Source of the DNA: a virus
Taxonomy: Duplodnaviria; Heunggongvirae; Uroviricota; Caudoviricetes
Virus record (IMG/VR): IMGVR_UViG_3300035502_000495
Length of the DNA stretch: 45,136 bases
Reading direction: 5' to 3' (one strand)
Of the stretch, positions 1 through 14,986 are shown one piece after another. The notes under the pieces are model-generated. The model worked only from the letters and a program-made list of their open reading frames with translations, searched no databases and was not told the origin of the DNA. The first letter of the stretch is position 1. The number at the start of each line of letters is the position of its first letter. The translations under genes were made by a program, and so were the position numbers.

Positions 1-2
1 AA

Positions 3-297: not shown

Positions 298-389
298 TTT
301 AAAATCCTCTCTTTCTTTTTTAAAAGTTTATTTGTTTCATTTGATATATTTATTATAACACTTTATCTTTTGTATGTCAATAGTTTTTA

Positions 390-704: not shown

Positions 705-798
705 TGTTTTAACCTCTCTTTCCTTTTGATATATTAAGTATATCATACTTTCATTTTAATGTCAATAGGAAATTTGCGACGTGCAAAAAAGACAAGTG

Positions 799-1518
799 TT
801 ATTTAAACACCTGTCTCAATTCTAATTCTTTTCTTTTCTTTTGTGGCAACCGCCAACAAGCTGTATTAATAGATTTATCCATTTTCTTATGAGTGGCAAA
901 ACATTTTGCCATAATTTCAACTTCAATTTCTACATCTTCTAAACCTGTATGACTTTCTACAAAATCAGTATAATTTGTAAGATATTTATAACAACATTCT
1001 GCCGAAGTTTGAATGTTATTTTTTTCACTAACTAATCCATTCTGTAAAGCAAATTTTATATATGTAGTTCTATTTAGCACAGTTTGGCAAGCCATGTTCC
1101 AAATACAAAAGTATTCAGTCCCAAAAGGAAAAAACCACCTAATTAATGATTTACTATGATAGCGAATTGCATTGTTTAAAGCTCTTTTATCAAAGCCCAT
1201 GTTATAAGCACCAACTTTTTTAATTTTCCATGCTTTCATGTCAGTATGTACTTGTTTTCTGATATTAAAAATAGATTTAATTGTTCTGTCACCATTTTTA
1301 ATATCTTCCCAATATTGAGGAATTTTTTCAGCGAAATATGCACTTTTCATCATTTCTTGATTATCCAAAAAAGTTTCCGCAACTACATAACTTCTTCTTA
1401 AAACAATGTTACCTTTTCTATCTGTGATTGCATATCCAACATCATAAGGTAGTGGCTGTTCAATTGTGTTCGCTGTTTCTGTGTCAATTACTAAAAAGTA
1501 TTCTTTTCTTCTTCCCAT
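799..1518 (-). CDS. DEDDh (DnaQ-like) 3'-5' exonuclease
   Basis: ExoI motif VIDTET, ExoII YNMGFD, ExoIII HTGLED. Confidence 0.85.
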   Translation of the reverse strand: MGRRKEYFLVIDTETANTIEQPLPYDVGYAITDRKGNIVLRRSYVVAETFLDNQEMMKSAYFAEKIPQYWEDIKNGDRTIKSIFNIRKQVHTDMKAWKIKKVGAYNMGFDKRALNNAIRYHSKSLIRWFFPFGTEYFCIWNMACQTVLNRTTYIKFALQNGLVSEKNNIQTSAECCYKYLTNYTDFVESHTGLEDVEIEVEIMAKCFATHKKMDKSINTACWRLPQKKRKELELRQVFK

Positions 1519-1639
1519 GTTTGTTTACCTCTCTTTTTATTTGATATATTTATTATACATCTTTATGGGAAAATAATCAATATACAAAATACACAAAAAT
1601 GCGGAAGAAAATTTGTTGAATATGTATATTGACAGGAAC

Positions 1640-1677
1640 TGGCAGGCTGACGTAGAGTAGCGTACGTCAGCCTGCCA
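1640..1677. repeat. conserved-loop hairpin E1 (15-bp perfect stem, loop GAGTAGCG)
   Basis: TGGCAGGCTGACGTA-GAGTAGCG-TACGTCAGCCTGCCA. Confidence 0.95.
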
Positions 1678-1697
1678 CCCAATTTAGCAAAAAGAAA

Positions 1698-1719
1698 GAG
1701 AGGTCTGAAAAGACCTCTC
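1698..1719 (-). terminator. intrinsic terminator
   Basis: GAGAGGTCT-GAAA-AGACCTCTC with a plus-strand A-run to its left (U-tract on minus), after the stop at 1724. Confidence 0.85.
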
Positions 1720-1723
1720 AAAT

Positions 1724-1927
1724 TTATGCTTCGTAAAATACTAAATCTCCATTATATACAGATGAAATACTTGTTTTTGTAATTTCGCCATGCGTATTTT
1801 TTAAATATTCTTCTAGAAGATTACATTCATCATCAGAAATATTATCTCTTACCTCGATAAAAGGTTGAATAATATCAACTGGGATATCAATAATTTCATC
1901 TGTAAATTTTGTTACTTTTAATTTCAT
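1724..1927 (-). CDS. hypothetical early protein (67 aa)
   Basis: ORF with GAGGTG RBS, ends at a terminator. Confidence 0.8.
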   Translation of the reverse strand: MKLKVTKFTDEIIDIPVDIIQPFIEVRDNISDDECNLLEEYLKNTHGEITKTSISSVYNGDLVFYEA

Positions 1928-1931
1928 ATTT

Positions 1932-2168
1932 TTACACCTCTCTTATATTATCAATTGTTAATTCTGCTGATACTTTTGTAACAAACTTTTCTGTAGGAAT
2001 AAAAAAAGTGTTCCCTATTTCTAAATCAACTGTATTTTGATATTCATTATCAACTTTTGTATCATTAATTTTCATACAAATAAATGGTCTTGTACCCCAT
2101 AAGAATACATCTCCAACACTTAAATCATCAAATTTTGTTTGACCTGTATATTTATTATTAATTTTCAT
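1932..2168 (-). CDS. hypothetical early protein (78 aa)
   Basis: ORF with GAGGAG RBS, in an operon with its neighbours. Confidence 0.8.
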   Translation of the reverse strand: MKINNKYTGQTKFDDLSVGDVFLWGTRPFICMKINDTKVDNEYQNTVDLEIGNTFFIPTEKFVTKVSAELTIDNIREV

Positions 2169-2171
2169 AAT

Positions 2172-2330
2172 TTAATTTCTCCTCTTATCTGAAATTGGAT
2201 TTAATAAATATTCATCTTTTAATTTAGTATATTTAGGTTGCGGACTTATACCTAAAACCTTTCCTAGTCCAACTGCCTCTTGATATGAAATTACCTCTTT
2301 ATTTCCTACTACATAAGTTAATTTTGTCAT
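2172..2330 (-). CDS. small hypothetical protein (52 aa, MTKLTYVVGNKEV..RRN), absent from the ORF track
   Basis: GAGAGG RBS, promoter at 2368-2396, stop abuts the next gene. Confidence 0.75.
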   Translation of the reverse strand: MTKLTYVVGNKEVISYQEAVGLGKVLGISPQPKYTKLKDEYLLNPISDKRRN

Positions 2331-2406
2331 TTTAAAATTCCTCTCTTTCTTTTTATTTTATATATTTATTATAACATTTTATCTTTTGTATGTCAAGTAT
2401 TTTTAT

Positions 2407-2667
2407 CTATTCTTCGTATAATACACACCCATTATATTTATCATTGCTTTCATTGCTTAGAATGTAAACCTCATTTAAACACATTGCTGTACTATCTAAG
2501 CCATATTTTTTTGAAATTTCATTAATAATATAATTATATAAATTATTTTCATCTATTCTATCAGTAACATAATCATTTGTATCACATGCCTTTAAATAAG
2601 GCTCAATAGTTGTTTTATCAGCTATATCTAATTTTATCGAAGCTCTTAATTCTACTTGTACTTTCAT
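2407..2667 (-). CDS. hypothetical early protein (86 aa)
   Basis: RBS and promoter at 2698-2726. Confidence 0.85.
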   Translation of the reverse strand: MKVQVELRASIKLDIADKTTIEPYLKACDTNDYVTDRIDENNLYNYIINEISKKYGLDSTAMCLNEVYILSNESNDKYNGCVLYEE

Positions 2668-2754
2668 ATTTATACCTCTCTTTCATTTGATATATTTATT
2701 ATACTACTTTATCTTTTGTATGTCAAGTATTTTTTTAAATTTTTTCTTTATTAT

Positions 2755-3024
2755 CTAATCTCTTTTGTAGTTCCTCAACTTCTTTATTTGTTTTTCCCAT
2801 AAGTTCCAATTTTTATAAGCGTAATTCATAATCTCTACAGCGTGTTGTACAAACATTTGTTTACTAGCAATTTCACATAACCATTGGAATACTTGATAAA
2901 TTTCAATTACATAAGGACTTTTTTCAAAGTCTGAAAAATGATATACAGTGTCGGGGTGCTTAGTGCTACCACCCCAACATTCACATACTAAATCATTTTC
3001 ATTATTTTTAAAAATCCTAACCAT
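2755..3024 (-). CDS. hypothetical early protein (89 aa)
   Basis: RBS and promoter at 3070-3098. Confidence 0.85.
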   Translation of the reverse strand: MVRIFKNNENDLVCECWGGSTKHPDTVYHFSDFEKSPYVIEIYQVFQWLCEIASKQMFVQHAVEIMNYAYKNWNLWEKQIKKLRNYKRD

Positions 3025-3066
3025 TTTTTGTTACCTCTCTTTTCTTTTTTATTTATCTTATATATA

Positions 3067-3255
3067 TTAATTATAATAAAATTCTTTTAATTTGTCAAGT
3101 GTTTTTTCATTTTCTTTTTTTAATTGATACATTCTATTTCCTAAACAAAACAGGCAACCGCCATGACAGCGACAACTTTTATCAATTTGCTCGCAGTATT
3201 TATAATAAGGTTTTCTGTGTTCCCTCCCATATTTGATAGCTTTATCCATGCTCAT
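3067..3255 (-). CDS. small basic Cys/His-rich (putative Zn-binding) protein
   Basis: CRCHGGCLFC motif; RBS; promoter at 3287-3315. Confidence 0.75.
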   Translation of the reverse strand: MSMDKAIKYGREHRKPYYKYCEQIDKSCRCHGGCLFCLGNRMYQLKKENEKTLDKLKEFYYN

Positions 3256-3374
3256 TTTTATTTACCTCTCTTCCTTTTCTTCATATAGTATACACCTAAT
3301 ACGGGATTTTTACAATAGGCAAATAGACAAATTTTCTGCGGAAAATTTATGCAACATTACTACTTGACAGGACT

Positions 3375-3412
3375 TGGGTCGCTCACATAGAGGAGCGTAT
3401 GTGAGCGACCCA
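3375..3412. repeat. conserved-loop hairpin E2 (15-bp perfect stem, loop GAGGAGCG)
   Basis: TGGGTCGCTCACATA-GAGGAGCG-TATGTGAGCGACCCA. Confidence 0.95.
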
Positions 3413-3418
3413 TGCAAG

Positions 3419-3447
3419 AAAAGCCTTGGGAATTTTCCAAGGCTTTT
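3419..3447. terminator. intrinsic terminator (possibly bidirectional)
   Basis: AAAAGCCTTGG-N7-CCAAGGCTTTT downstream of 3513..3923. Confidence 0.8.
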
Positions 3448-3512
3448 AATTTATTCATTTATTAAATTTTTATTAAATTTGCAAGGCGGATTTGCTCCGC
3501 CTTGCTTTTCTC

Positions 3513-3923
3513 TTAGGCAAGTGAGAAAAATGCCTTTTTCTTATCCTCGGTTCTTACAACCTCATTTGTAGCACACAATTTCTTAACTAGTGCTGATAGT
3601 TTCTGATTTGTCATGGTCTTAGTTTCAGTACCTTCTACATAAGTCTTTAATCTATCATCAGTCATAAGCTCTGAAATTGTAACAGGCTTATCAGTTTCAG
3701 CAAGAACAGTCTTAATAGTATCTAGGATAGCTTCATTTGCCTGCTGTGTCTTAGTGTTACCACTCTTATTAGATTTCTTCTGTAGAAGTTCAACCTCATG
3801 GTCGATAAAAGCTAAGATGTCGGCTTTATTAGCGGTTTCCACACTTTCTACAATATTTCTTACCATTTCGAAATACTGTGCCTTTGTTACCTTTACTACC
3901 TTTGTTGTGTTTGTGTTTGTCAT
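3513..3923 (-). CDS. putative winged-helix DNA-binding protein (136 aa)
   Basis: C-terminal KPVTISEL..TNQKLSALVKKL..VVRTEDKKKAFFSL resembles a wHTH; preceded by tandem promoters. Confidence 0.6.
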   Translation of the reverse strand: MTNTNTTKVVKVTKAQYFEMVRNIVESVETANKADILAFIDHEVELLQKKSNKSGNTKTQQANEAILDTIKTVLAETDKPVTISELMTDDRLKTYVEGTETKTMTNQKLSALVKKLCATNEVVRTEDKKKAFFSLA

Positions 3924-4126
3924 AATTCATTACCTCTTTCTTTCTTTAAAATTATTTGTTTTTGTTTCCTTTAATATATTTATTATATCATTTCTTTATT
4001 CAGTTGTCAAGACTTTTTTTAAAAATCTTTTTAAGATTTTTCTTTTCTCTTTTGTTTTTCTATATATTTATTATACTATTTTATTTTTTGTTTGTCAAGA
4101 GTTTTTTATTTTTTTTGTTGTGGGAA

Positions 4127-4279
4127 TTACTTTACATAATTCCCAGCAACTGCCTTGAGGCTCCCATCAGGATTGAAAAAAATAACATTATCTTGAATAA
4201 CTCTAATTCCTTTAGCTCTTGCCTCAGCTCTAAAAACATAATCACTTTTATACTTTTTTAAAAAATCTGCTTTACTCAT
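4127..4279 (-). CDS. small hypothetical protein (50 aa, MSKADFLKKY..NYVK), absent from the ORF track
   Basis: AAGAGGT RBS; promoters at 4316-4344 and 4412-4440. Confidence 0.75.
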   Translation of the reverse strand: MSKADFLKKYKSDYVFRAEARAKGIRVIQDNVIFFNPDGSLKAVAGNYVK

Positions 4280-4498
4280 TTTTGTTTACCTCTTTCCTTT
4301 TCTTTTTATATATTTATTATATCATTTCTTATAAGGTTTGTCAAGACTTTTTTTAAAATTTTTTATTTTTTTCTTGGTGTTGTTTCTGTCTTTCCCTTAC
4401 CTTATATAAATATTATACTAAAATTTTTTATTAATTACAATAGTTAAAATGACTAAAATTATAGGATTATTTTTGTGTATTTTTTTTATTAAAAATCC

Positions 4499-4527
4499 TT
4501 GACAAAAAGTGCGGCGAGTGGTATAAT
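4499..4527 (+). promoter_or_regulatory. perfect plus-strand sigmaA promoter, back-to-back with the early promoters and pointing into hairpin E3
   Basis: TTGACA-17-TATAAT with extended -10 TG. Confidence 0.8.
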
Positions 4528-4536
4528 AGAATTTTC

Positions 4537-4570
4537 GGGCAGCCACGTAGAGCAGCGTACGTGGCTGCCC
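4537..4570. repeat. conserved-loop hairpin E3 (13-bp perfect stem, loop GAGCAGCG)
   Basis: GGGCAGCCACGTA-GAGCAGCG-TACGTGGCTGCCC. Confidence 0.95.
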
Positions 4571-4590
4571 CGTCAAGAATAAAAAAGAAA

Positions 4591-4614
4591 AGAGAGGTCT
4601 GAAAAGACCTCTCT
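4591..4614 (-). terminator. intrinsic terminator
   Basis: AGAGAGGTCT-GAAA-AGACCTCTCT overlapping the stop of 4613..4921; U-tract on minus. Confidence 0.85.
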
Positions 4615-4921
4615 AAGCATAATCACCCTCATTATCTTGCCATTCTTCTTTTGTAATGATATCAAAATTACCCCAACAATCTGACCTAAAAAATTCTTGC
4701 GCCTGCTCGATAGCGTCATCATAATCTTCTAAGGTTTCATAGTCATCACTATCGATATCTTCTGTTGCTAAATACATTAATGACTCTGTATGGTCTTGGA
4801 CTAATTCATCTAAGTATTCATTCAAATGTTCTTTTGTTTGCTCTTGTTTAAAACAGATATATTTATCCTCATCAAAACCGCAGTAAGGAGTTGTTAAATA
4901 AAAATGAACGTATTGTTCCAT
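4613..4921 (-). CDS. highly acidic small protein (102 aa), DNA-mimic candidate
   Basis: 30 D/E versus 5 K/R by manual count; GAAGGTG RBS. Confidence 0.8.
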   Translation of the reverse strand: MEQYVHFYLTTPYCGFDEDKYICFKQEQTKEHLNEYLDELVQDHTESLMYLATEDIDSDDYETLEDYDDAIEQAQEFFRSDCWGNFDIITKEEWQDNEGDYA

Positions 4922-4941
4922 ATTTTCACCTTCTTTCTTTT

Positions 4942-5022
4942 AGGGCTGAACTTCTTTTCCTAAGCAATCAACTTCTTTACCAAGAAATCAATCGCCTGTA
5001 CTTGTTAGAAGTCCGACACCCT
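4942..5022 (-). ncRNA. structured RNA A (G.U-containing hairpin, leader or sRNA)
   Basis: Starts just after promoter 5035-5063; 8+5-bp outer stems enclose a 14-bp hairpin with 4 G.U pairs; no ORF. Confidence 0.6.
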
Positions 5023-5059
5023 TTATTTATATTTATTATATCATTTTATTTTTCTTTTG

Positions 5060-5302
5060 TCAATAGATTTTATCAATTTTCATTGTTGTAATAGAAAAAC
5101 AGTCTATAGGAGATAAACGACACACATCTTCTAATCGGTAGTATTTTCCATTTTCATCAAAAAAATCATCATCAGTTCTTTCAGCAATTTTAGTATTAAT
5201 ACAATTTTTAGCTTTTTCTTCAGTTGTAAAAATACCTATCGCTTTTTCACAACCATTTGCTATGTCAATGCACTCATTAACTATATACAATTTATTTATC
5301 AT
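5060..5302 (-). CDS. hypothetical early protein (80 aa)
   Basis: ORF with AGAGAGG RBS. Confidence 0.8.
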   Translation of the reverse strand: MINKLYIVNECIDIANGCEKAIGIFTTEEKAKNCINTKIAERTDDDFFDENGKYYRLEDVCRLSPIDCFSITTMKIDKIY

Positions 5303-5353
5303 ATTTGATTGCCTCTCTTTTATTTGATATATTTATTATAGCATTTTATTTTT

Positions 5354-5575
5354 TTATTTATCGCCCCATTTTAATTCAACTTTTCCAAAAGTTATTTTAC
5401 AAGTAATAAGAATAAAAAGAAGTTCTTTATAACTTAAAATTGGAATACAAGCAAAATATCCATTAAGAATAATTAATACTTGTTTAATTAATAATGGTGG
5501 AATAGCAATAAAGATAATTAATACTAATATTAATTTAACAATGCTATTTACTATTTTTATATACTCTTCGTTCAT
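5354..5575 (-). CDS. small membrane protein (73 aa)
   Basis: Two hydrophobic segments; RBS; promoter at 5609-5637. Confidence 0.75.
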   Translation of the reverse strand: MNEEYIKIVNSIVKLILVLIIFIAIPPLLIKQVLIILNGYFACIPILSYKELLFILITCKITFGKVELKWGDK

Positions 5576-5697
5576 TTTTTTGTTACCTCTCTTTCATTTG
5601 ATAATATAAGTATATCATAATATAGGATTAAGGTCAATGTACAGAATAACTAAAATTTTGGTAAAAAATTTGTGCAACATTACTACTTGACAGGAAC

Positions 5698-5735
5698 TGG
5701 CTCAGCAACGTAGAGTAGCGTACGTTGCTGAGCCA
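5698..5735. repeat. conserved-loop hairpin E4 (15-bp perfect stem, loop GAGTAGCG)
   Basis: TGGCTCAGCAACGTA-GAGTAGCG-TACGTTGCTGAGCCA. Confidence 0.95.
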
Positions 5736-5748
5736 CTCAAAAGAAAAA

Positions 5749-5764
5749 AGAGGCTCAAGCCTCT
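5749..5764 (-). terminator. intrinsic terminator
   Basis: AGAGGC-TCAA-GCCTCT with U-tract on minus, after the stop at 5778. Confidence 0.7.
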
Positions 5765-5777
5765 CTTAATAAACTAT

Positions 5778-6167
5778 TTACATTTTTAAACCTCTTTCCA
5801 TAAGATATTGTATAGCCTTTTCACTGTCAAACCAGTTTAAAACGACTGATAAAGGTGGATTATCCTCTTTAAATTCGACAGTCATATACATATTATCTAA
5901 TTGTTTAGTTTTCCATTCTTTTATGTCTTTGATATGTTTTATTGTCATTGAATTAAAAAATGCAATTACTTGACCTTTTTTAAATTGCCATATATTAAAA
6001 GGTAAAAATATCCCATACTTACTATAATTTTCTTTTAAATTATCCCATGTAAAATAAATTTTTTGATTTTGGATATTTTTTTCATCTGCCAAAGTTCTAT
6101 TTGTAAAAGAGCTTATTAATTCATCTTTATAGTAAAATTTAAAGAACCCTATATAAAAATTTGTCAT
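5778..6167 (-). CDS. hypothetical early protein (129 aa)
   Basis: ORF with AGAGAGGT RBS. Confidence 0.85.
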   Translation of the reverse strand: MTNFYIGFFKFYYKDELISSFTNRTLADEKNIQNQKIYFTWDNLKENYSKYGIFLPFNIWQFKKGQVIAFFNSMTIKHIKDIKEWKTKQLDNMYMTVEFKEDNPPLSVVLNWFDSEKAIQYLMERGLKM

Positions 6168-6171
6168 TTTA

Positions 6172-6297
6172 TTACCTCTCTTTTTTCTTTAATTCTTTTA
6201 ATTTGTTAATTTGTTCGCCATATGTTGGCGGTTTGCCATTTACCGCTTTATATCTCCATATCCAGTTATTTAGAACTTGTTGAATTTTATCTGTCAT
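6172..6297 (-). CDS. small hypothetical protein (41 aa, MTDKIQQVLNNWIWRY..KKER), absent from the ORF track
   Basis: Promoter at 6332-6360; GAAGG RBS-like sequence; stop lies in the RBS of the next gene. Confidence 0.6.
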   Translation of the reverse strand: MTDKIQQVLNNWIWRYKAVNGKPPTYGEQINKLKELKKKER

Positions 6298-6363
6298 AAC
6301 CGCCAACCTTCTTTCTTTTCTTTATATATTTATTATACTACTTTATTTATCATTTGTCAACAG

Positions 6364-6642
6364 TTATTCTTCAACCACTGTTAAAAAATTTAAACATTTA
6401 GATTTTTCATCATACAAAATATGCAAGTGTCCTTCGTCTGCCACACATTTCATAGTAGAGTGATTAATGACTTCTAACATTGTTAAGTCAGACATTTCTA
6501 CATTTTCTTCTAAAGATACGCTATCTACAATATGTGGGATTATGATTTCATTCTCCGACTTCTCAATAAAATCAACTTCCATGAATGATAAAAAATTTTT
6601 AATTCTAGCAAAACTATTTCTAATAAAAATATTGTGTTCCAT
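6364..6642 (-). CDS. hypothetical early protein (92 aa)
   Basis: ORF with AGAGGT RBS. Confidence 0.8.
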   Translation of the reverse strand: MEHNIFIRNSFARIKNFLSFMEVDFIEKSENEIIIPHIVDSVSLEENVEMSDLTMLEVINHSTMKCVADEGHLHILYDEKSKCLNFLTVVEE

Positions 6643-6728
6643 TTTATTACCTCTTTCTTTAAATGTTTTTTGTTTACATTTATATTATCTCTTTTGTATG
6701 TCAAGCATTTTAATTAAATCTTTTTCTA

Positions 6729-7196
6729 CTAGTTGCGATATTCCGCAACTAGTAAATCAACTAATTTAATTAAAATATTTTCATTTGCATTAATTGTATC
6801 GCCTAAATTCCAACCAATTCTGATTTTTTCATTGTCATCTATTAAAATTTGATAGCCGCCCTTTTTTCTAGTGCAATCGGCTTTTGTAGTGCCATATTTT
6901 ACAAGATGAATTTCATCATATGGAAACTGATATTTTGCAAGCCATTCTTTTTTTGCTTTTCTAACTTTTTCATCATATTCTTTTGAGCTATCTTTTGCCA
7001 ACCAACTTGTGATTACAATTTCCCAACCATTAGTTTTTAATAATCCTAAGATACTTGCAAGCGTGTCCATATCATACATTGGTTTTGCAATTTCATATGG
7101 TCTTGCATTTTCACTTCTCAAATCAACTAACCAATTTTCAACTCCATATAAATTTGCTAAAGTGCCGTCCATGTCAAATACTAATACTTTATTCAT
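6729..7196 (-). CDS. HAD-superfamily phosphatase, 5'(3')-deoxyribonucleotidase-like
   Basis: Motif I FDMDGT, motif II ITS, motif IV LIDDN. Confidence 0.8.
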   Translation of the reverse strand: MNKVLVFDMDGTLANLYGVENWLVDLRSENARPYEIAKPMYDMDTLASILGLLKTNGWEIVITSWLAKDSSKEYDEKVRKAKKEWLAKYQFPYDEIHLVKYGTTKADCTRKKGGYQILIDDNEKIRIGWNLGDTINANENILIKLVDLLVAEYRN

Positions 7197-7289
7197 TTTT
7201 ATTACCTCTCTTTTCTTTTCTTTATATATTTATTATAATACTTTATTTTTTATTTGTCAATAGTTTTTTTGAAAAAAGCTAAATTTTTT

Positions 7290-7736
7290 TTATTTAGCTT
7301 TTTTCAATTTTTCTAGCGTTCTTTCAACTACTATTTGAGCACCATTAAATTTAATTTGCACTTGTTTACCATTAATTTCTAAATCACCACTTACATAAAA
7401 TGGTACATTGTCTTTACCTCTAAATTCTTGACCATTCATTTCAGAAATAATTTTTTCAAACTGTACACCCTTATTATAATCACCATTTAAAATGTTTTCA
7501 TTTCCAATTGATACAGCTCCTTTTTTAATTAATTGTTTTTGATAATTTTGAGGCAATCTTAATTGTAATTTTGCACAACCGCCCTTTTTACTACTTTCAT
7601 GCTCAACTCTCATGTATCTTGGCATAATTTCGTTAACTTCTATCATATAAACTTCATGTTTATAAATAAATCCTAAAATATAGCTATCTGCGGCTGAAAA
7701 TTTTCTATAATTTCTAATCATTGTTTGTTTTGTCAT
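7290..7736 (-). CDS. hypothetical protein, possible PD-(D/E)XK-like fold (148 aa)
   Basis: NKGVQFE..SGDLEINGKQVQIK pattern; RBS; promoter at 7771-7799. Confidence 0.55.
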   Translation of the reverse strand: MTKQTMIRNYRKFSAADSYILGFIYKHEVYMIEVNEIMPRYMRVEHESSKKGGCAKLQLRLPQNYQKQLIKKGAVSIGNENILNGDYNKGVQFEKIISEMNGQEFRGKDNVPFYVSGDLEINGKQVQIKFNGAQIVVERTLEKLKKAK

Positions 7737-7832
7737 GGTCTTTTACCTCTTTCCTTTTCTTTATATATTTATTATAGCACGTTTAATGTGACTTGTCAAC
7801 TACTTTTTTAAAATTTTTTTATTTTCCCCAAT

Positions 7833-7911
7833 GGGGCTGTCAGTCACCTTAAACCAACCGCCTAGCCATATACTAAACGACCAATCCAAGTAGTGTGACC
7901 TCCGCAACCCC
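7833..7911 (-). ncRNA. structured RNA B (79-nt G.U-rich hairpin)
   Basis: Own promoter at 7933-7961; 7-bp, 6-bp and 19-bp stems, the last with 10 G.U pairs; folds only on the minus strand. Confidence 0.7.
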
Positions 7912-8020
7912 TTTCCTTTATCTTATATATATATTATACTCCCACCAACCGCAGAAGTCAATATACAAAATGACTAAAATTTCGGGATAAAATTTATGCA
8001 ATTTTTTTCATCTTTTTCTC

Positions 8021-8049
8021 TTGACAAAAGTTGCTGGGTATGATATAAT
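8021..8049 (+). promoter_or_regulatory. perfect plus-strand sigmaA promoter pointing into hairpin E5
   Basis: TTGACA-17-TATAAT with extended -10 TG. Confidence 0.8.
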
Positions 8050-8058
8050 AGATTTTTC

Positions 8059-8094
8059 GGCGTGCTGGCGAAGAGCAGCGTCCGCAAGCACGCC
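8059..8094. repeat. conserved-loop hairpin E5 (14-position stem with 2 mismatches, loop GAGCAGCG)
   Basis: GGCGTGCTGGCGAA-GAGCAGCG-TCCGCAAGCACGCC. Confidence 0.9.
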
Positions 8095-8111
8095 TTGGAA
8101 AATAAAAAGAA

Positions 8112-8134
8112 AAGAGAGGTTTTTAACCTCTCTT
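8112..8134 (-). terminator. intrinsic terminator
   Basis: AAGAGAGGTT-TTT-AACCTCTCTT, U-tract on minus, after the stop at 8139. Confidence 0.85.
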
Positions 8135-8138
8135 ATAA

Positions 8139-8363
8139 TTAATTTTTAATTAAGCCTTCATTAATAAGTATTTCATAAAACAATTTGCAAGTATCTTTAT
8201 ATTCTTCATCATTTTCAGCTATATATTTATAATCATTTTCACTAGCTTCATCTGGTACACCTTCAGCAATCCATAATTCAAAATTTTCTTCATCTTGCAC
8301 TTCATCTCTTATGTATTTATCCATACTTTTTAAACACTGTACCTTTGCTTCTATTATTGTCAT
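8139..8363 (-). CDS. acidic hypothetical early protein (74 aa)
   Basis: RBS, promoter at 8398-8426, terminator. Confidence 0.85.
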   Translation of the reverse strand: MTIIEAKVQCLKSMDKYIRDEVQDEENFELWIAEGVPDEASENDYKYIAENDEEYKDTCKLFYEILINEGLIKN

Positions 8364-8444
8364 TTTGTTTACCTCTCTTTCCTTATCTTATAAATATATT
8401 ATAATATAAATTTGTAAGTATGTCAATCCTTTTTATAAAATTTT

Positions 8445-8564
8445 TTAAATTATTTTAATGTAAAATAATCCATTACTAATTGAATAAGTAAAATCATACT
8501 GATTAACTTCTAAAAATCTTTTCACTTTTTCAAATGCCTCTCTATTTGTATACATTATTGCCAT
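8445..8564 (-). CDS. small hypothetical protein (39 aa, MAIMYTNREAF..IKII), absent from the ORF track
   Basis: AGAGAGGT RBS; promoter at 8596-8624. Confidence 0.7.
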   Translation of the reverse strand: MAIMYTNREAFEKVKRFLEVNQYDFTYSISNGLFYIKII

Positions 8565-8631
8565 TATATTTTACCTCTCTTTTCTTTATATATTTATTAT
8601 AACATTTTATCTTTTGTATGTCAAGTATTTT

Positions 8632-8820
8632 TTATTCTTCTTCCATTTCATTTTCAATGTAGCTTTCAAATGTATTAAAGCCTGTTCTAGCATATACTAT
8701 ATTATCTAATATTGTGTTCCAATCGCCATTACAAATACATCTAACTAAATTAATTTCATTTGCGGTTGCAATTCCATATTCTATTATCATATCATATTTA
8801 ATACATTCGTTTGTGTTCAT
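8632..8820 (-). CDS. hypothetical early protein (62 aa)
   Basis: RBS; promoter at 8857-8885. Confidence 0.8.
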   Translation of the reverse strand: MNTNECIKYDMIIEYGIATANEINLVRCICNGDWNTILDNIVYARTGFNTFESYIENEMEEE

Positions 8821-8899
8821 TTTTTATTACCTCTCTTTTCTTTTCTTTATATATATAGTATACACCTTGCTATTTATATTGTCAAGACTTTTTTTAAAT

Positions 8900-9083
8900 T
8901 TTCTTGAGCGGGAGTCGAACCCGCATTTACATTGTGCGTCGCATTAAGGATTACCACAGTATATTTATGTACCCAATTGTACAACCTTGCCTATCACCTG
9001 CTACCTGTTTCGCCATGAATTTACATAGGAATCGAACCTACACAGACAGAACGCCAACAGCTTTTCCATTAAGCTATCAAGAA
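8900..9083 (-). ncRNA. tRNA-shaped RNA with a 109-nt insert in place of the anticodon loop
   Basis: Acceptor stem TTCTTGA/TCAAGAA, D-arm GCTT-AATGGAA-AAGC, 9-bp anticodon-position stem, T-arm GCGGG-TTCGACT-CCCGC; second T-arm inside the insert; own promoter at 9108-9136; no encoded CCA. Confidence 0.7.
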
Positions 9084-9147
9084 ATAATTAATTTATTTTC
9101 TATAATTATAATACCATGTTTTTATTAATTTGTCAATAGTTTTTTTA

Positions 9148-9291
9148 TTATTTTTTATAAGTATACATAATAGTAAAGCCTGTTCTTACATCAGTATACA
9201 TTGTGCAAAAAGCAATGTTTGGATTATTCTTTACTTTATTATAATAATTAATCATTTGACCTTTGAATTGGAATGTTTTTGTATATGTCAT
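9148..9291 (-). CDS. small hypothetical protein (47 aa, MTYTKTFQF..TYKK), absent from the ORF track
   Basis: AGAGAGGT RBS; promoters at 9325-9353 and 9416-9444. Confidence 0.75.
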   Translation of the reverse strand: MTYTKTFQFKGQMINYYNKVKNNPNIAFCTMYTDVRTGFTIMYTYKK

Positions 9292-9570
9292 GGTGTTTAC
9301 CTCTCTTTCTCTCTTTCTATATTTATTATAGCACGTTTTCAGAAGTCTGTCAAGAGATTTTTTAAAAAAATTTTTTTATTTTCTATTCAGTTCTCTTTCC
9401 TTACCTTCTATATATAGTATACTACATTATACTAATAGAGTCAATATACAAAATGCACAAAATAAAATAATAAATTTTGTATAAAATGCTGAAATGCGGG
9501 AACCGCCTTACGAACCTAAGTTCTCGTTTTCTAACTGGAATTAGTTGCAACTAACCATGATAAGGCAAAA

Positions 9571-9593
9571 CGAAAGCTGCGCGGCAGCTTTCG
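9571..9593. repeat. GC-rich perfect hairpin (10-bp stem, GCG loop)
   Basis: CGAAAGCTGC-GCG-GCAGCTTTCG. Confidence 0.8.
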
Positions 9594-9730
9594 ACCCGCC
9601 CAATTGTTTGAATTTTAGGAACAAAATAAAAAAGACCAAAAAACTCGTTTTTCACAAAATTTTTCTAGCCTTAGGTATCTTGGAGCTGAGCCGACCCGCA
9701 CATGACCATGTACGAAATCGCTTGAAAGAA

Positions 9731-9898
9731 TTATTTCAAGAATGTAGCAATTGCTTTAAAACATACGTCCGCATTATCTTGAGAATGTGTATCTTCTTGT
9801 TCGCTGAAATAATTCATTGATGCATTAAGTAAATCTTTTACTGGTATAAACTCAAATACTAACTGTAATGCGGCGAGTTCATTCAAATTATTGCCCAT
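9731..9898 (-). CDS. small hypothetical protein (55 aa, MGNNLNELAALQ..TFLK), absent from the ORF track
   Basis: GGGAG RBS; promoter at 9935-9963. Confidence 0.65.
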   Translation of the reverse strand: MGNNLNELAALQLVFEFIPVKDLLNASMNYFSEQEDTHSQDNADVCFKAIATFLK

Positions 9899-10016
9899 TG
9901 CATAAACTCCCTTCTTTATTTACTTTATATATATATTATATAATAAATTTTTTAAAAAATCAATAAAAGAAAATTAATCAAGCTTTATAGAAACATAGAC
10001 CGACCGCCCGCATGAA

Positions 10017-10040
10017 AAGAGAGGTTGAAAAACCTCTCTT
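10017..10040 (-). terminator. intrinsic terminator
   Basis: AAGAGAGGTT-GAAA-AACCTCTCTT after the stop at 10043. Confidence 0.8.
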
Positions 10041-10042
10041 AT

Positions 10043-10315
10043 TTATTTCCAACCTCTTTCTTCTTTAATTTTTTCGTATCTCTCTTTATTCTCTTGCTCT
10101 ATCTTTTCTTTATCATATACTCTCATTTTTGTTTTTGTATATCCATACTGTGTTAATTCTCTATTACTCCAATATCTTTTATTACAAATTTTAATAATTC
10201 CGTCCTCTTGAATTTTCTTTTTATTATCTATAATATATTGTTTACTAGGAACTTCTACTAATGTACTAACTGGTTTATAACCTTGATTTGAAATTAATGT
10301 TACTTGAATTATCAT
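10043..10315 (-). CDS. hypothetical early protein (90 aa, basic)
   Basis: ORF with RBS and terminator. Confidence 0.85.
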   Translation of the reverse strand: MIIQVTLISNQGYKPVSTLVEVPSKQYIIDNKKKIQEDGIIKICNKRYWSNRELTQYGYTKTKMRVYDKEKIEQENKERYEKIKEERGWK

Positions 10316-10368
10316 TTTATTTACCTCTCTTTATATATTTATTATAATACGCTTAATTATAAGTTTAT

Positions 10369-10404
10369 TAAGATTTCAGCCTATTTATGAAGGCTGAAAT
10401 CTTA
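10369..10404 (-). terminator. terminator-like hairpin
   Basis: 14-bp perfect stem TAAGATTTCAGCCT/AGGCTGAAATCTTA overlapping the stop of 10385..10519. Confidence 0.6.
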
Positions 10405-10519
10405 TTATTTGCCCATGTTTTCTAATTTCTATTTTTTTCTCTTGAGCACTCATACCATGATACCATGCGTATGTTCCATCTTCAAATAAATACCAACCTT
10501 GTGTTTTTGTTCTTGCCAT
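10385..10519 (-). CDS. small hypothetical protein (44 aa, MARTKTQGWYLFEDG..FQPS), absent from the ORF track
   Basis: AGAGAGGA RBS; promoter at 10556-10584. Confidence 0.75.
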   Translation of the reverse strand: MARTKTQGWYLFEDGTYAWYHGMSAQEKKIEIRKHGQIIRFQPS

Positions 10520-10523
10520 AATT

Positions 10524-10910
10524 TTTATCCTCTCTTTCCTTTTCTTTATATATTTATTATATACCTTATTAGTTATGCTGTCAAGACTTTTTTAAAAATT
10601 TTTTTATTTTATTTAAGCTCCCAATTTCTGTTATTTATATAAATATTATTACCATAAAATTTTCCAATTGGTTCAGCGTTTTTTGCTACTATTCCAACGA
10701 TATCTGTCACTTTATTTTGACCCCAAAAGCCATCTCTATCTTGAGTATCTTCTACAAACTCTATTTCTGTATTATCGTCCATGTTTTTAATTATTTCCAT
10801 TAATTCTCTTTTTGTCATTTTTATTTATCCTCTCTTTCCTTTTCTTTATATATTTATTATATACCTTATTAGTTATGCTGTCAAGACTTTTTTAAAAATT
10901 TTTTTATTTT
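10524..10910. repeat. 87-bp perfect direct repeat (10524-10610 and 10824-10910)
   Basis: Identical RBS+promoter+UP block, 300 bp apart, flanking ORF 10609..10818. Confidence 0.95.
10609..10818 (-). CDS. hypothetical early protein (69 aa)
   Basis: RBS; promoters at 10856-10884 and 10947-10975. Confidence 0.8.
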   Translation of the reverse strand: MTKRELMEIIKNMDDNTEIEFVEDTQDRDGFWGQNKVTDIVGIVAKNAEPIGKFYGNNIYINNRNWELK

Positions 10911-10972
10911 TGTCTTGCTTTTTTCTTTTCTTCATCTTATGTATTTATTATAGCATTGTTTACTACATACGT

Positions 10973-11025
10973 CAATAGACAAAATACACAAAATACCGCT
11001 TTGCTTTTGTGCATTTTGTCTATTG
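10973..11025. promoter_or_regulatory. 53-bp inverted repeat (21-11-21); best-preserved copy of the motif upstream of module promoters
   Basis: CAATAGACAAAATACACAAAA-N11-TTTTGTGCATTTTGTCTATTG (arms 20/21 complementary); degenerate copies start at 1578, 3313, 4438, 5635, 7959 and 9442. Confidence 0.8.
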
Positions 11026-11075
11026 TTTTTATGTCAGTCTATTTTAAATTACATGTGTTATTTTATCCGCCCTTA

Positions 11076-11337
11076 AACTAGCAGTTAGTTGAACTAATAT
11101 AAATTAGTCTGAACTACTTTTTGTTAGTTCCAGCTTACATTAGTTAGTGGTATCTAACTGTAATGAGTTTACACTAATTTATAAGACAAAACTTTTTTAC
11201 TTTACATTTTAAGTTAGTCTAATCTAACTCAAGTTAGTTGCGACTAGTTCTAGTTAGTGATATCAATCTGGGATTAATCCTGCCTAACTTGAGTTAGCTT
11301 TTTCAAACAACAAATAATTGCAACTAACTCAAGTTAG
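11076..11337. repeat. CTAACT/AGTTAG iteron-like array
   Basis: CTAACT-NN-AGTTAG at 11224, 11284 and 11324, plus many half-sites. Confidence 0.85.
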
Positions 11338-11675
11338 AAACCTCGGATTTGCGCGACCAAAGCCGCGCCAATTTTAATTAAAGTAGATATAAGATTAAAC
11401 TATTTTATATTTTATTAATCAAATTTTATTTTTATTATTCAATTTTATTGAAATATAATATTATATTTAATTATTAATTCAATATTTTTTATTATTTAAT
11501 ATATATTTATTGTCCCGCATAATTAAAAAATAATAATATAATATTCTGGGCGTGTCTCAATAAAACTATCTAAAAAAATTCTCTCTAGCTACACAGCATA
11601 CCTATGACAAAAGGTGGGGCAGTAATTTTGGGATTTTATTTTTTTGAAATGTAAAATGTGTTATGCCACGTACAA

Positions 11676-11773
11676 AAAATCTCCAAATGTATTTTAAAAA
11701 TAAAAATATGAAAAATAAAATCTCCAAATATATTTTAAAATATAAAAAATGAAATCTCCAAATATATTTTAAA
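11676..11773. repeat. three direct repeats of about AAATCTCCAAATRTATTTTAAA
   Basis: ATCTCCAAAT cores at 11679, 11720 and 11754. Confidence 0.85.
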
Positions 11774-11990
11774 TATCTTCCTCGCACAAACGAATTATAT
11801 TATCAACTTCAATTTCTGCATTATCTAAAATTTTTTGTAAATCATTAAGGTCAAAATAAAAATATTTTCTTACTGTAATTAAAGTTTTTTTATATTCATC
11901 TGAAATAGCTAATTCATTAATCATATCGTTCAAAACTTTTATTATTTTATCTCTTTTTTCTATTTCTACTTTCATTTCTTTTATAGTCAT
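11769..11990 (-). CDS. hypothetical protein (73 aa)
   Basis: GGAGGT RBS; last gene of the minus-strand operon. Confidence 0.8.
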   Translation of the reverse strand: MTIKEMKVEIEKRDKIIKVLNDMINELAISDEYKKTLITVRKYFYFDLNDLQKILDNAEIEVDNIIRLCEEDI

Positions 11991-12000
11991 ATTTACCTCC

Positions 12001-12207
12001 TTACAATGAAGATGCTATATCAATATCTGTATTATAAATAACATCTTTCGCATAATTAACTTCCCTATTTAAAACTACATATGCTGTTCTTAATGCAGAT
12101 AATTCTTCTTCTGTAAATCTCTTAGAGTCATTAATCATATTAAGAAGATTAGGTAATACTTCATCTTCCATTCTTTTTACTTTTTCTTCTAAGTGTCCAA
12201 TTTTCAT
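12001..12207 (-). CDS. hypothetical protein (68 aa; start moved to MKIGH)
   Basis: GGAGGT RBS; ATGA overlap with the upstream stop. Confidence 0.75.
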   Translation of the reverse strand: MKIGHLEEKVKRMEDEVLPNLLNMINDSKRFTEEELSALRTAYVVLNREVNYAKDVIYNTDIDIASSL

Positions 12208-12590
12208 ATCATACCTCCAAAAACATAGATTCCCCACGTCAAAATAATCTGTACCAAATGTATCAACTGGTCTTGTATTAAATTAATAGCTTTCTTATTA
12301 GCCTTCAAATCATCAACTATAGCATGAATACCCCAATTGATTACAAAAGTCAAAAGCAACATATTAAGCGGAATCCCCGACCCCGCCGCAACAATAGGAA
12401 TATGAATCATAAAAGTCCAACTAAAAGCGTGTTCCATCAAAGCCATTATATAATCATTCTTATATAAATCATCCGCAGCGTTCTTTTCCCACCATGACCT
12501 CTGCTTAGCAGAAGCTAACCAACCTTGTAAATAATAATCATCAACTATATGAAAAAATATCATTGATAATAATAAAATTAATATTTTCAT
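12204..12590 (-). CDS. DUF3307-like membrane protein (128 aa; start moved to MKILI)
   Basis: HIVDDYYLQ..EHA..HAIVD..DQLIH pattern in hydrophobic helices. Confidence 0.7.
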   Translation of the reverse strand: MKILILLLSMIFFHIVDDYYLQGWLASAKQRSWWEKNAADDLYKNDYIMALMEHAFSWTFMIHIPIVAAGSGIPLNMLLLTFVINWGIHAIVDDLKANKKAINLIQDQLIHLVQIILTWGIYVFGGMI

Positions 12591-12868
12591 ATCATACTCC
12601 ATTTTATCGTAGTTTTAAGCATCGCAATTTCATTTCTAACGCCCTGTAATCTATCTTCAATGCTCTTTATAGCGGCTTCCCGCGGTATATAAAATGTTAT
12701 TCCTTCCACAATAAAATCTAAAGGCATATTATTAAGAATTTCTTTATTATGTAATATTGTATATATTTGCTCTTCTTCTCTTTCTAACTCTTGTATACGT
12801 TTTAGAGTTTTTGTTATATTATTTATTGTTTCATCTTCTATTGGATGAAATACTTGTTTCTCTTCCAT
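12587..12868 (-). CDS. hypothetical protein (93 aa)
   Basis: ORF within the operon. Confidence 0.8.
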   Translation of the reverse strand: MEEKQVFHPIEDETINNITKTLKRIQELEREEEQIYTILHNKEILNNMPLDFIVEGITFYIPREAAIKSIEDRLQGVRNEIAMLKTTIKWSMI

Positions 12869-12886
12869 GTTGTTATAATACCTCTT

Positions 12887-13114
12887 TTATAAAATATCTA
12901 CATTACCCGCATTTAAATAATTTTGATAATTAGTAGCAATATCTCGTACATAAGACGCGGCAATTGTCAAATCTGTAGGCGATATATGAAATTCATTTAA
13001 ACTTAATATCACTTCTTCATCTGACCTTAATAGTTCATTTTTTGCCTTGGAAAATATCTCCGCAACTTCCTTTATCTTAGTAAGTTTATCTTGTGTTTCA
13101 TTAATATTGTTCAT
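12887..13114 (-). CDS. hypothetical protein (75 aa)
   Basis: GGAGGT RBS. Confidence 0.8.
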   Translation of the reverse strand: MNNINETQDKLTKIKEVAEIFSKAKNELLRSDEEVILSLNEFHISPTDLTIAASYVRDIATNYQNYLNAGNVDIL

Positions 13115-13199
13115 TATTTTATTTTACCTCCGCGGTTGCTCGATTAGTCCTCCTCTAATCCAGCTTTATTTTCCTTACAGCCCTTATATTTATTTTATT

Positions 13200-13667
13200 T
13201 TATAATTCTCCTTCATATGTACATTGACCATTAAAAAATGGGCACTCTAAATCACATTGGTGCATTTCATCATATTTACAATGCGGGATTTTAAAATTAA
13301 TAACAATTTCAGCTTCATCGAATTGTTTTTTCCATGAGGCTTGATTATAGAATCTAGCGGCCATCCGCCACCCATACTTATTTAAAATATAATCATACAT
13401 TTGTCTTAATCTATACTCTTGATTAAGACGATTTTCTTTCTTTTCTGCTTTTGTAAGAGGTCTAATCATATATGGTTCTTCTTTAGGAAATCTGCACCAC
13501 ATTATTTTTGAATCCTCTTGCTGTTCTTTTGTGGCTTCATTCCAATATATTTTAGGTCGTGGATTAATGCGGATTCCGCCTGGTCTAACTGTGCTAATAT
13601 GATTTTCCGCATCTAATATAGCTGCCCCTAAACCAGTCGCTACAAATATCTTATTATTTTCATACAT
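13200..13667 (-). CDS. hypothetical protein with Cys-rich C-terminus (155 aa)
   Basis: HCKYDEMHQCDLECPFFNGQC; promoter at 13701-13729. Confidence 0.8.
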   Translation of the reverse strand: MYENNKIFVATGLGAAILDAENHISTVRPGGIRINPRPKIYWNEATKEQQEDSKIMWCRFPKEEPYMIRPLTKAEKKENRLNQEYRLRQMYDYILNKYGWRMAARFYNQASWKKQFDEAEIVINFKIPHCKYDEMHQCDLECPFFNGQCTYEGEL

Positions 13668-13700
13668 ATTTATTTACCCTTCTTTATTTTTTATAATATA

Positions 13701-13778
13701 ATTATATCATTTATTTTTTTGAAAATCAATTAAAGTTTTTCGTCCTAGTTTGACAAAAGAAAAATTTTGTATTATAAT
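13701..13778. promoter_or_regulatory. divergent sigmaA promoter pair
   Basis: Minus TTGATT-17-TATAAT at 13701-13729; plus TTGACA-17-TATAAT at 13750-13778. Confidence 0.8.
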
Positions 13779-13810
13779 ATAATTATGGGAAGAAAAGAAA
13801 GGAGCGCTTT

Positions 13811-14986
13811 ATGGAAAATAAAAATTCACTTCTTTCTGATGAAGAGTTTAATGATAAGATTCAAGAAAAAGCAGATAAAAAAATTGAAGAACAAATCATT
13901 GAAGAGAATATCAAGCCGACTAGGAAATTAGATTATTCTTTAAAAACACCTGAAGAAAGAAACGAATTAGTTAAAAAAATTATTGATGAAACTCCTCCTG
14001 AACAGCTTACTAACAGATATTTAGAAATTTTGAGCGATTATATTATTTTTGCTATGGATAAGAAAGAAAGACAACAAAAGAAAATTTTAACTGATAATAG
14101 AATGGTAACTGTAAACAAGAGAGAAACATCATTTCAAGGATTAGCAGGGCAGCTTGAAAATGGAGAAGATGGTATATATAATATGATTGCAAATGACAAA
14201 AATATTATTTTTACTCCAAAAATTGAGATTACTCAAAAGGATATAGATGAAATTCCTGCATTAAAAGATTTAGTTGCGGCAATTAAAGAAGTTGAAAAAC
14301 AAGCTAAGACGGCAACTGGTAAAAAGAAATTTTTATTAATGAAACAATTAATTGAAATGCGGAGAGACCAGTATGAAATTAGAAAGGCTTACCGCCAACC
14401 AATGTATTTTACAAATGCAATAAAAAGTTTTTCAAAGATGTCTTTTGATGAACATATAGAAATTACTCCAGAAGGAGAAATTAAGAGTAATGGACTAGTA
14501 TCATTCTTTAATCCGAAGCATATTTCTGCATTACTTTGTAATTATTCAAGATTAAAAGAAGATTCTTGGGGTAAGTTTTGGTCTGATTCTTATTTTTTAA
14601 TGGAAGATTTAGATAATTTAATTGAAAAAACTTTAAAAGATAAATACCCGCTTTATTACGATCTCTTGATTTATAAAATTGATGGGAAACCTAATGCGGA
14701 AATACAAAAATTATTATATGAAAAACATGGAATTAAACATTCAGTAGAATATTTATCATCTTTATGGAGAAATAAAATTCCTAAGTTATTGGCGGAGCAA
14801 GCTCAAGAAGATTATATAGATTGGTATTATTTAACACAAGAGTATGGTAAATATAAACGTTGCTCAAGATGTGGACAAATTAAATTAGCGGATAATAGAT
14901 TTTTTTCAAAAAATAAAACTTCAAAAGATGGATTTTACAGTATATGCAAGGATTGTAGAAACCATAAAACTAGCTTAAAGAAGTAA
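13811..14986 (+). CDS. putative DNA-binding/regulatory protein with an HTH-like region and a C-terminal Zn ribbon (391 aa)
   Basis: LLIYKIDGKPNAEIQKLL..SVEYLSSLW resembles a sigma-region-4 HTH; CSRC..CKDC; first gene of the morphogenesis arm. ORF is certain, function tentative. Confidence 0.5.
   Translation: MENKNSLLSDEEFNDKIQEKADKKIEEQIIEENIKPTRKLDYSLKTPEERNELVKKIIDETPPEQLTNRYLEILSDYIIFAMDKKERQQKKILTDNRMVTVNKRETSFQGLAGQLENGEDGIYNMIANDKNIIFTPKIEITQKDIDEIPALKDLVAAIKEVEKQAKTATGKKKFLLMKQLIEMRRDQYEIRKAYRQPMYFTNAIKSFSKMSFDEHIEITPEGEIKSNGLVSFFNPKHISALLCNYSRLKEDSWGKFWSDSYFLMEDLDNLIEKTLKDKYPLYYDLLIYKIDGKPNAEIQKLLYEKHGIKHSVEYLSSLWRNKIPKLLAEQAQEDYIDWYYLTQEYGKYKRCSRCGQIKLADNRFFSKNKTSKDGFYSICKDCRNHKTSLKK

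Follow-up and report, generated by a model that had tools for sequence, protein, structure and literature searches.

What is the 79-nt hairpin at 7833-7911 in the early region of this phage, and does it work within the transcript that carries it, or as an RNA in its own right? The early regions of large Gram-positive phages are read mainly as sets of small host-takeover proteins; here, promoter-driven RNA hairpins are found as separate cassettes. The structural genes of the window (the whole stretch of DNA that was analysed, 45,136 nt) are similar to those of Phass-1 (a human-gut phage of 136 kb) and, at a greater distance, to those of Enterococcus phages of 134-142 kb. Phage Phass-1 (OQ749652.1) is also the closest annotated relative by a structural protein (23278-24342, 52% identity); it is filed by NCBI under 'Caudoviricetes code 15 clade', and the long ORFs of the window are open under table 11. 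Positions 1-14000 form a minus-strand early region with many short genes, each of which is preceded by a near-consensus promoter of the sigma-70 type and by a purine-rich leader of stereotyped form. The hairpin, hereafter RNA B, is located between two such promoters, P1 and P2. The reading that is tentatively preferred here is that RNA B might be a leader-embedded processing or stability hairpin of the P1 transcript, probably a substrate of the RNase III type.

Fold and transcription unit of RNA B

The features of the locus, in the direction of transcription, are as follows.

7933-7961, minus strand: promoter P1, TTGACT-17-TATAAT, 11 of 12 consensus matches
7912-7932, minus strand: purine-rich leader of 21 nt from the -10 box to the hairpin; its 3' end is AAAGGAAAG; invariant in 7 contigs
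7833-7911, minus strand: RNA B hairpin, 79 nt, with helices of 7, 6 and 19 bp and 12 G.U among 32 pairs
7800-7889, minus strand: TTG ORF of 29 codons, with GGAGG at 7903-7899 (9-nt spacing); judged non-coding
7800-7832, minus strand: A-rich spacer of 33 nt, an UP-like element of promoter P2, without a U-tract terminator
7771-7799, minus strand: promoter P2, TTGACA-17-TATAAT with extended -10, 12 of 12 consensus matches
7290-7736, minus strand: 148-aa early gene, the first gene reached by transcripts carrying RNA B
7269-7307, strand not given: A/T-rich palindrome with a terminator-like hairpin, located past the 148-aa gene; no candidate terminator lies closer downstream of RNA B

On the minus strand of RNA B, a basal helix of 7 bp and a second helix of 6 bp are separated by a CGGA/GA internal loop; beyond an ACUA bulge, 19 consecutive pairs are closed by an AUAUG loop. 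The fold proposed in the sequence-only reading, with 10 G.U among the 19 pairs of the apical helix, was thereby reproduced exactly. The 32 pairs include 12 G.U, 12 G-C and 8 A-U, and no non-standard pair occurs. The MFE of the minus strand is -34.5 kcal/mol (z -4.39; 0 of 200 shuffles equally stable), and only 1 of 5000 dinucleotide shuffles was as stable; whereas the plus strand of the same positions reaches just -13.9 kcal/mol (z -0.85). Both strands of the whole 79.5-kb record were also scanned in 80-nt windows with 5-nt steps. RNA B is the top strand-asymmetric fold of the record (difference of -20.3 kcal/mol, sd 4.5), and the next best difference is -16.2. The more stable folds of the record are G+C-rich DNA palindromes beside terminators, which fold on both strands. 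The fold of RNA B exceeds chance expectation, and the same hairpin is retained in a modelled 210-nt P1 transcript. The folds, the strand asymmetry and the P1 score support the earlier claim of a strand-specific, RNA-level element behind a promoter. The element is also G-rich on an AT-rich background, as had been described, with 53% G+C (28 G and 14 C) vs 26-29% in the surrounding region.

The promoter that had been claimed upstream of RNA B was recovered as P1, and its -35 box lies at the edge of a repeated 45-nt fold-back module (repeat family D15; copies at 1577, 5634, 7958 and 9441). Transcription from P1 is predicted to start near 7926. The leader sequence AAAGGAAAG is Shine-Dalgarno-like and also heads ordinary early genes. 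No terminator-like site or U-tract was found between RNA B and the 148-aa gene, and AUUGGGGAAAAUAAAAAAA is located directly 3' of the hairpin; P1 transcripts are therefore expected to continue through P2 into the 148-aa gene. An intrinsic (Rho-independent) terminator was considered as an identity for RNA B and rejected, since the stem is followed by AUUGGGGAAAAUAAAAAAA instead of a U-tract and is missing from the list of terminator-like sites. P2 is probably the ortholog of the single promoter found at that place in relatives, and it is followed by the SD and ATG of the 148-aa gene. The description of RNA B as a 'stand-alone' RNA between two promoters holds only in part. It is the sole content there, but it is not a closed unit: it has no terminator, and belongs to the P1 leader of the 148-aa gene.

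Two other tandem promoter pairs of the minus strand in the window (9444-9416 / 9353-9325 and 10975-10947 / 10884-10856) are empty, with just a purine-rich leader of 35-60 nt between the promoters and neither a hairpin nor a gene. Given these empty pairs, RNA B looks like an insert in a standard P1 leader. The 148-aa protein has 477 metagenomic homologs and belongs to no Pfam or PHROG family. Its confidently predicted structure (pLDDT 86.6) gave no convincing match, with E values of at least 0.39 by Foldseek against the PDB and Z scores of at most 3.4 by VIA-align.

Known RNA families were searched at two levels. No Rfam match was found in the whole window at the gathering score; at E values up to 10 (searched with 3.5 kb and with 126 nt, and also around the second hairpin described below), only chance-level matches to unrelated families were returned. 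The novelty claimed for RNA B thus stands with respect to Rfam. A Y RNA / YrlA or a vault RNA was rejected, as neither was matched in Rfam even at E up to 10. A tRNA or tmRNA was also rejected; ARAGORN called 0 genes in the window, and neither a D arm nor a T arm accompanies the 7-bp basal helix of RNA B. An R-loop or origin primer was set aside: the transcript is G-rich and an A/T-rich run comes after it, but the stable fold would compete with the hybrid, and the second hairpin is not G-rich. RNA B carries only a short resemblance to a nexus-like motif (GGCUAG), and the idea of a CRISPR-repeat/tracrRNA mimic was set aside. Its resemblance to the Ro60-binding helix is limited to 4 bp (GGUC/GACU), and this idea was set aside as well. 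Antisense complementarity of RNA B within the phage record was limited to exact matches of 9-11 nt, the longest of 10-11 nt, and no target was found.

Several other elements of the early region were observed. A tRNA-like element with T-arm-like GGTTCGA motifs is located at 8900-9083 (minus strand; promoter at 9108-9136), which was not called by ARAGORN and reaches a sub-threshold 20.4 bits with the Rfam tRNA model. On the plus strand, a perfect TTGACA-17-TATAAT promoter at 8021-8049 is directed away from the early genes, and is followed by a G+C-rich hairpin (8059-8094) and a bidirectional terminator (8112-8134); a plus-strand RNA of ~80-90 nt is possible. The minus-strand region 9560-9700, upstream of the promoter module at 9444, is ORF-poor and G+C-richer. 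It includes a strand-specific fold at 9620-9699 (-20.0 vs -5.4 kcal/mol) and a terminator-like hairpin at 9571-9593. Two 87-nt promoter-plus-leader copies (10524-10610 and 10824-10910), which are 100% identical, lie ahead of two different small genes. Further G+C-rich stretches, promoter-driven and apparently ORF-free, occupy early-region slots in distant relatives (L003:2525-2700 and L019:4640-4820). These point to small non-coding cassettes as a feature that recurs, and varies, among the phages of this kind.

The second hairpin E2 and a possible action in trans

A second hairpin, E2, was found via a weak full-length match of the RNA B covariance model (R1) at 4942-5022. The E2 features in the window and its copies in the relatives are given below.

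5035-5063, minus strand: E2 promoter, TTGACA-17-TATAAT with extended -10
4943-5021, minus strand: E2 hairpin, 79 nt, promoter-proximal, of a general design like that of RNA B
L002:4521-4599, L012:4668-4746, L019:4505-4584 and L021:3736-3814: E2 copies
L027:4761-4839, L028:1469-1538, L033 and L034: further E2 copies

The MFE of E2 is -31.5 kcal/mol (z -5.6). It is the next most minus-strand-specific fold within the window and is tied second in the record. Search with the E2 model revealed one copy in every relative examined (E 1e-27 to 1e-7), and also matched two further IMG/VR genomes. No copy was found in Phass-1, and no locus was confirmed when metagenomes were scanned with the protein encoded behind E2. 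E2 runs straight into the SD of its gene in the window and in L006; in the window, this SD is followed by the ATG of a 102-aa acidic protein. The gene behind E2 varies among the relatives (50, 61, 102 or 116 aa); between the two larger proteins, identity is just 48%. The layout in the relatives is the same as that of RNA B, which includes a promoter, a leader, the hairpin, an A-rich spacer, a second promoter and a gene.

In the alignment of 10 distinct E2 sequences, which was fitted to the model, 94.9% of the cells are paired and both-side changes are found in 14 of the 28 pairs. No shuffle (0 of 500) reached any of these measures, and slid controls were 37-61% paired. Plain sequence comparison of E2 between the window and L006 also showed two A-U to G-C double changes. 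The conserved unpaired motifs include GUGUCG, AAYAAGUAC, a GRYA loop, AGGAAA and CAGC. By these comparisons, the E2 structure is conserved across the phage lineage with clear compensatory changes, and E2 is a stronger candidate for a new RNA motif than RNA B; it supplies a motif that can be tested and aligned. The proposal that the wobble pairs of RNA B reflect selection for an RNA duplex, not for a DNA palindrome, fits E2, in which a long G.U-rich helix is kept by compensatory changes (10 distinct sequences).

Comparison of RNA B with E2 showed several similarities. Both are 79 nt long with three helices, of which the apical one is long and G.U-rich, and both have a consensus early promoter and a purine-rich leader directly upstream. 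In the relatives, a second promoter comes after E2 without an intervening terminator, as it does after RNA B, and in the window the two hairpins share the end motifs GGGU..CGGA and CAGCCC. The position and layout of an E2-type leader hairpin were found at RNA B, namely the early promoter, the purine leader, the three-helix hairpin of ~79 nt, the absence of a terminator, and the promoter or gene that follows. The sequence relationship is weaker. The reciprocal full-length model matches have E values of 4.4 and 0.55, and the global pairwise alignment has a z of 3.3 (as good in 14 of 2000 shuffles). The E2 family model R3, built from all ten E2 sequences, gave RNA B 10.2 bits (E 2.6), which is rank 5 in the window and not significant; true members reach 36-108 bits. 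The unpaired motifs of RNA B comparable to those of E2 are just GUUGCG, ACUAC and CAGC; its apical loop reads AUAUG, and an AGGAAA loop is missing. Unlike E2, RNA B is nearly fully paired and has neither of the internal loops AAYAAGUAC and AGGAAA. Moreover, E2 occurs once per genome across the lineage, whereas RNA B is limited to one strain cluster. RNA B shares the kind of layout seen in E2; homology between the two is not shown by these comparisons.

RNA B might also be a trans-acting accessory small RNA, a possible but doubtful reading. It would be released by trimming or by a roadblock at P2, and would then act elsewhere, for example as a dsRNA-like decoy or a binding partner; the protein concerned could be a host one (RNA-binding or of a defence system) or an RNA-handling one of the phage. 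A near-consensus promoter is dedicated to the hairpin, even though the gene downstream is served by a perfect one; and RNA B is gained and lost among close relatives, as described in the next section, in the manner of accessory early genes. Whatever gene follows (50, 61, 102 or 116 aa), E2 is conserved in this layout, and its unpaired motifs suggest a specific partner. RNA B, however, is almost wholly double-stranded, which leaves little sequence free to pair, and it has no terminator or defined 3' end. No partner or target complementarity was found in the phage genome, nor any Rfam match at E up to 10. The roles put forward in the sequence-only reading (dsRNA decoy, RNase III substrate or antitoxin mimic) are conjectural.

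A broader proposal, which is judged unlikely, would join RNA B and E2 as candidates for an undescribed class of promoter-driven phage hairpin RNAs acting in trans. The double-stranded products of the first minutes of infection may then occupy a host protein that binds, cleaves or senses RNA, or may serve the phage RNA machinery. RNA B may in that case be an additional cassette of particular strains, and be exchanged in the way that anti-defence genes are. If the hairpins do act in trans, an RNA layer would be added to host takeover or counter-defence.

Distribution of RNA B and the ORF within it

The relatives were contigs fetched for homologs of the 148-aa protein, from 100% down to 45% identity. 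RNA B was present solely where this neighbour is 99-100% identical (L004-L007 and L009-L011), and many of the contigs that bear it come from one metagenome series. In the relatives with a 79-91% identical neighbour, the P1 -10 box, the leader and RNA B are all missing, and the flanks align. The covariance model R1 found no match in 16 loci of relatives or in the full 20-kb early region of one relative; none was found in whole records of 139 kb (94% complete), 102, 23 and 8 kb either. Three patterns (exact-core, transition-tolerant and ends-only) gave 0 matches each in IMG/VR. A pattern allowing pair-preserving transitions only gave 0 matches in the JGI metagenomes and 0 in the GTDB genomes. 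In these pattern scans, in which the record of the window and its closest kin may be missing, no further copy that fits the patterns was found. In blastn searches against GenBank phage records, the generic promoter and leader were matched, but never the hairpin. Judged from these searches, the RNA B cassette is restricted to a single strain cluster.

Within the contigs that carry it, RNA B varies at 1 of its 79 positions, which is located in the unpaired ACUA bulge; strain variation in P1 amounts to 4 of 29 positions, clustered in the spacer. The other non-coding DNA varies at 17 of 323 positions, and the contrast with RNA B is suggestive but not significant (Fisher p = 0.22). The contigs fall into two RNA B haplotype groups with different gene content and 4-6% divergence in the flanking non-coding DNA, and RNA B is unchanged between them except for one bulge base. 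RNA B has no covariation evidence of its own, because its other copies are nearly identical.

The narrow distribution could also be that of a young functionless insert or local rearrangement, which happens to fold and has not yet decayed; this is quite improbable. It would explain why the hairpin is found only beside a 99-100% identical neighbour, largely in one metagenome series, and is absent from the other relatives, and it agrees with a conservation not significantly above background and with the lack of demonstrable homology to E2. The fold itself argues against it, as 1 in 5000 shuffles is as stable and no other fold of the record is as strand-asymmetric. All 32 of the 32 pairs are standard, with 12 G.U and no mismatch of the A.C type, and random decay of a DNA palindrome would not be expected to leave such pairing on one strand only. 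The hairpin has also stayed unchanged, apart from the one bulge base, across both haplotype groups.

The TTG ORF overlapping the hairpin had been named as a reading to be excluded, and it is unlikely to be coding. The last two bases of its SD have unpaired probabilities of 0.08 and 0.03, and those of the start codon are at most 0.04. The ORF tail occurs in three forms, and its three variable sites (E to K in one case, G to R in another, and a deletion of 1 nt) include no synonymous one (0 of 3); the deletion, found in three contigs, swaps the last 9 residues for 6. No gene was called at the ORF on 8 contigs, and the peptide gave nothing significant against PHROG (E 0.1). The encoded peptide is rich in Trp, Gly and Phe, with 13 hydrophobic or aromatic residues at the N-terminal and a Lys-rich tail. 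The Trp, Gly, Phe and Leu codons and the scarcity of stops arise from the G+U-rich composition alone. The exclusion of a peptide gene is thus supported by the paired start and SD, by tail variants which all change the peptide, and by the lack of calls. That RNA B is the folded mRNA of a 29-aa Trp-rich, type I toxin-like peptide whose translation is held off by the fold is very improbable: a GGAGG does stand 9 nt ahead of a TTG that opens 29 codons, and the N-terminal is hydrophobic and the tail Lys-rich, but the SD end and start codon are paired, 3 of 3 variants alter the peptide (one by frameshift), the ORF is uncalled and without a PHROG match, its hydrophobic run of ~13 residues is too short for a membrane helix, its amino-acid bias and few stops follow from G+U richness, and E2 has no comparable ORF.

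RNA B as a proposed leader module, and similar known systems

In the preferred reading, that of a leader-embedded processing or stability module, the RNA B cassette would have been inserted in the short leader between tandem early promoters of a gut or rumen phage of ~140 kb. The host RNA polymerase would start at P1 near the inferred position 7926, and transcribe ~15 nt of purine-rich leader and then the hairpin. Transcription would pass P2 into the 148-aa gene, so that an extended early transcript would carry RNA B in its 5' portion. The long G.U-rich duplex might be cut by RNase III, or might block 5' and 3' exonucleases; it would thereby mark the P1 transcript for processing or protection at the post-transcriptional level. 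A stable hairpin RNA of ~80-95 nt might accumulate as a by-product.

The evidence that points to this reading includes the fold statistics, the credible P1, the absence of a terminator, the empty tandem promoter pairs, the cassette-like presence and absence, the covarying E2 in the same layout, and the Bacillus and SP82 precedents described below. A near-continuous duplex of about two helical turns, as required of an RNase III substrate in a phage early transcript, is found in RNA B, in which 19 bp are stacked on 6 bp across the 4-nt bulge. Several points count against it. P2 is of perfect consensus, and the 148-aa gene therefore needs neither P1 nor a stabilised transcript. The hairpin is set back ~15 nt from the inferred 5' end, a greater distance than in the classical protective stem-loops of 5' ends. 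Specific unpaired motifs, for which a mere stabiliser would have no use, are retained in E2 and are missing from RNA B. Finally, RNA B has no covariation of its own, and its conservation is not significantly above that of other non-coding DNA (p = 0.22).

On the present comparisons, RNA B is a structurally convincing orphan with a putative function, and E2 is the more solid new object. RNA B offers a natural presence/absence comparison between nearly isogenic phages. If the hairpins are processing or stability modules, they would show how tandem promoters serve such phages in the tuning of early transcripts.

Hairpins in the early leaders of phages are a known kind of element; RNA B and E2 themselves are uncatalogued. 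The put RNAs of phage HK022 are promoter-proximal, cis-acting antiterminator RNAs with two stem-loops, which act on RNA polymerase. They are like RNA B and E2 in being structured RNAs transcribed right after early promoters, in having no terminator of their own, and in the presence of two copies per phage that differ from each other. The put RNAs act on their own transcript, as RNA B would in the preferred reading. They are composed of two stem-loops; whereas RNA B is a single long hairpin, with just one weak terminator downstream.

In Bacillus subtilis, mRNA is known to be stabilised from the 5' end by stable structure and by polypurine tracts that resemble an SD but have no start codon (PMC3997798). 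Such stabilisers include the aprE and ermC leaders, the cry3A STAB-SD and the SP82 polypurine tract (PMC3997798); RNA B may likewise combine an SD-like tract without a usable start with a stable structure near the 5' end. When compared with the features of such stabilisers (PMC3997798), RNA B has a polypurine leader and a GGAGG, and its hairpin is located ~15 nt from an inferred, unmapped start. Unlike the Bacillus stabilisers, the hairpin thus begins at a distance from the inferred 5' end instead of at the end itself, and it is far longer than end protection needs.

The T7 early sites and the lambda N-leader site are RNase III processing hairpins in early mRNA. The early mRNA of the Bacillus phage SP82 is described as a characterised target of B. 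subtilis RNase III in the passage of PMC4838370 that cites Panganiban and Whiteley (1983) and Mitra and Bechhofer (1994). The SP82 sites are located between cistrons; whereas RNA B is located between two promoters, and its cleavage is putative. The RNase III hairpins of SP82, which is a phage of Gram-positive bacteria as the present one appears to be, and likewise those of T7 and lambda, are long, imperfect and non-coding, lie on the way from promoter to gene in early transcripts of the host polymerase, and contain a duplex of RNase III length; RNA B is alike in these features.
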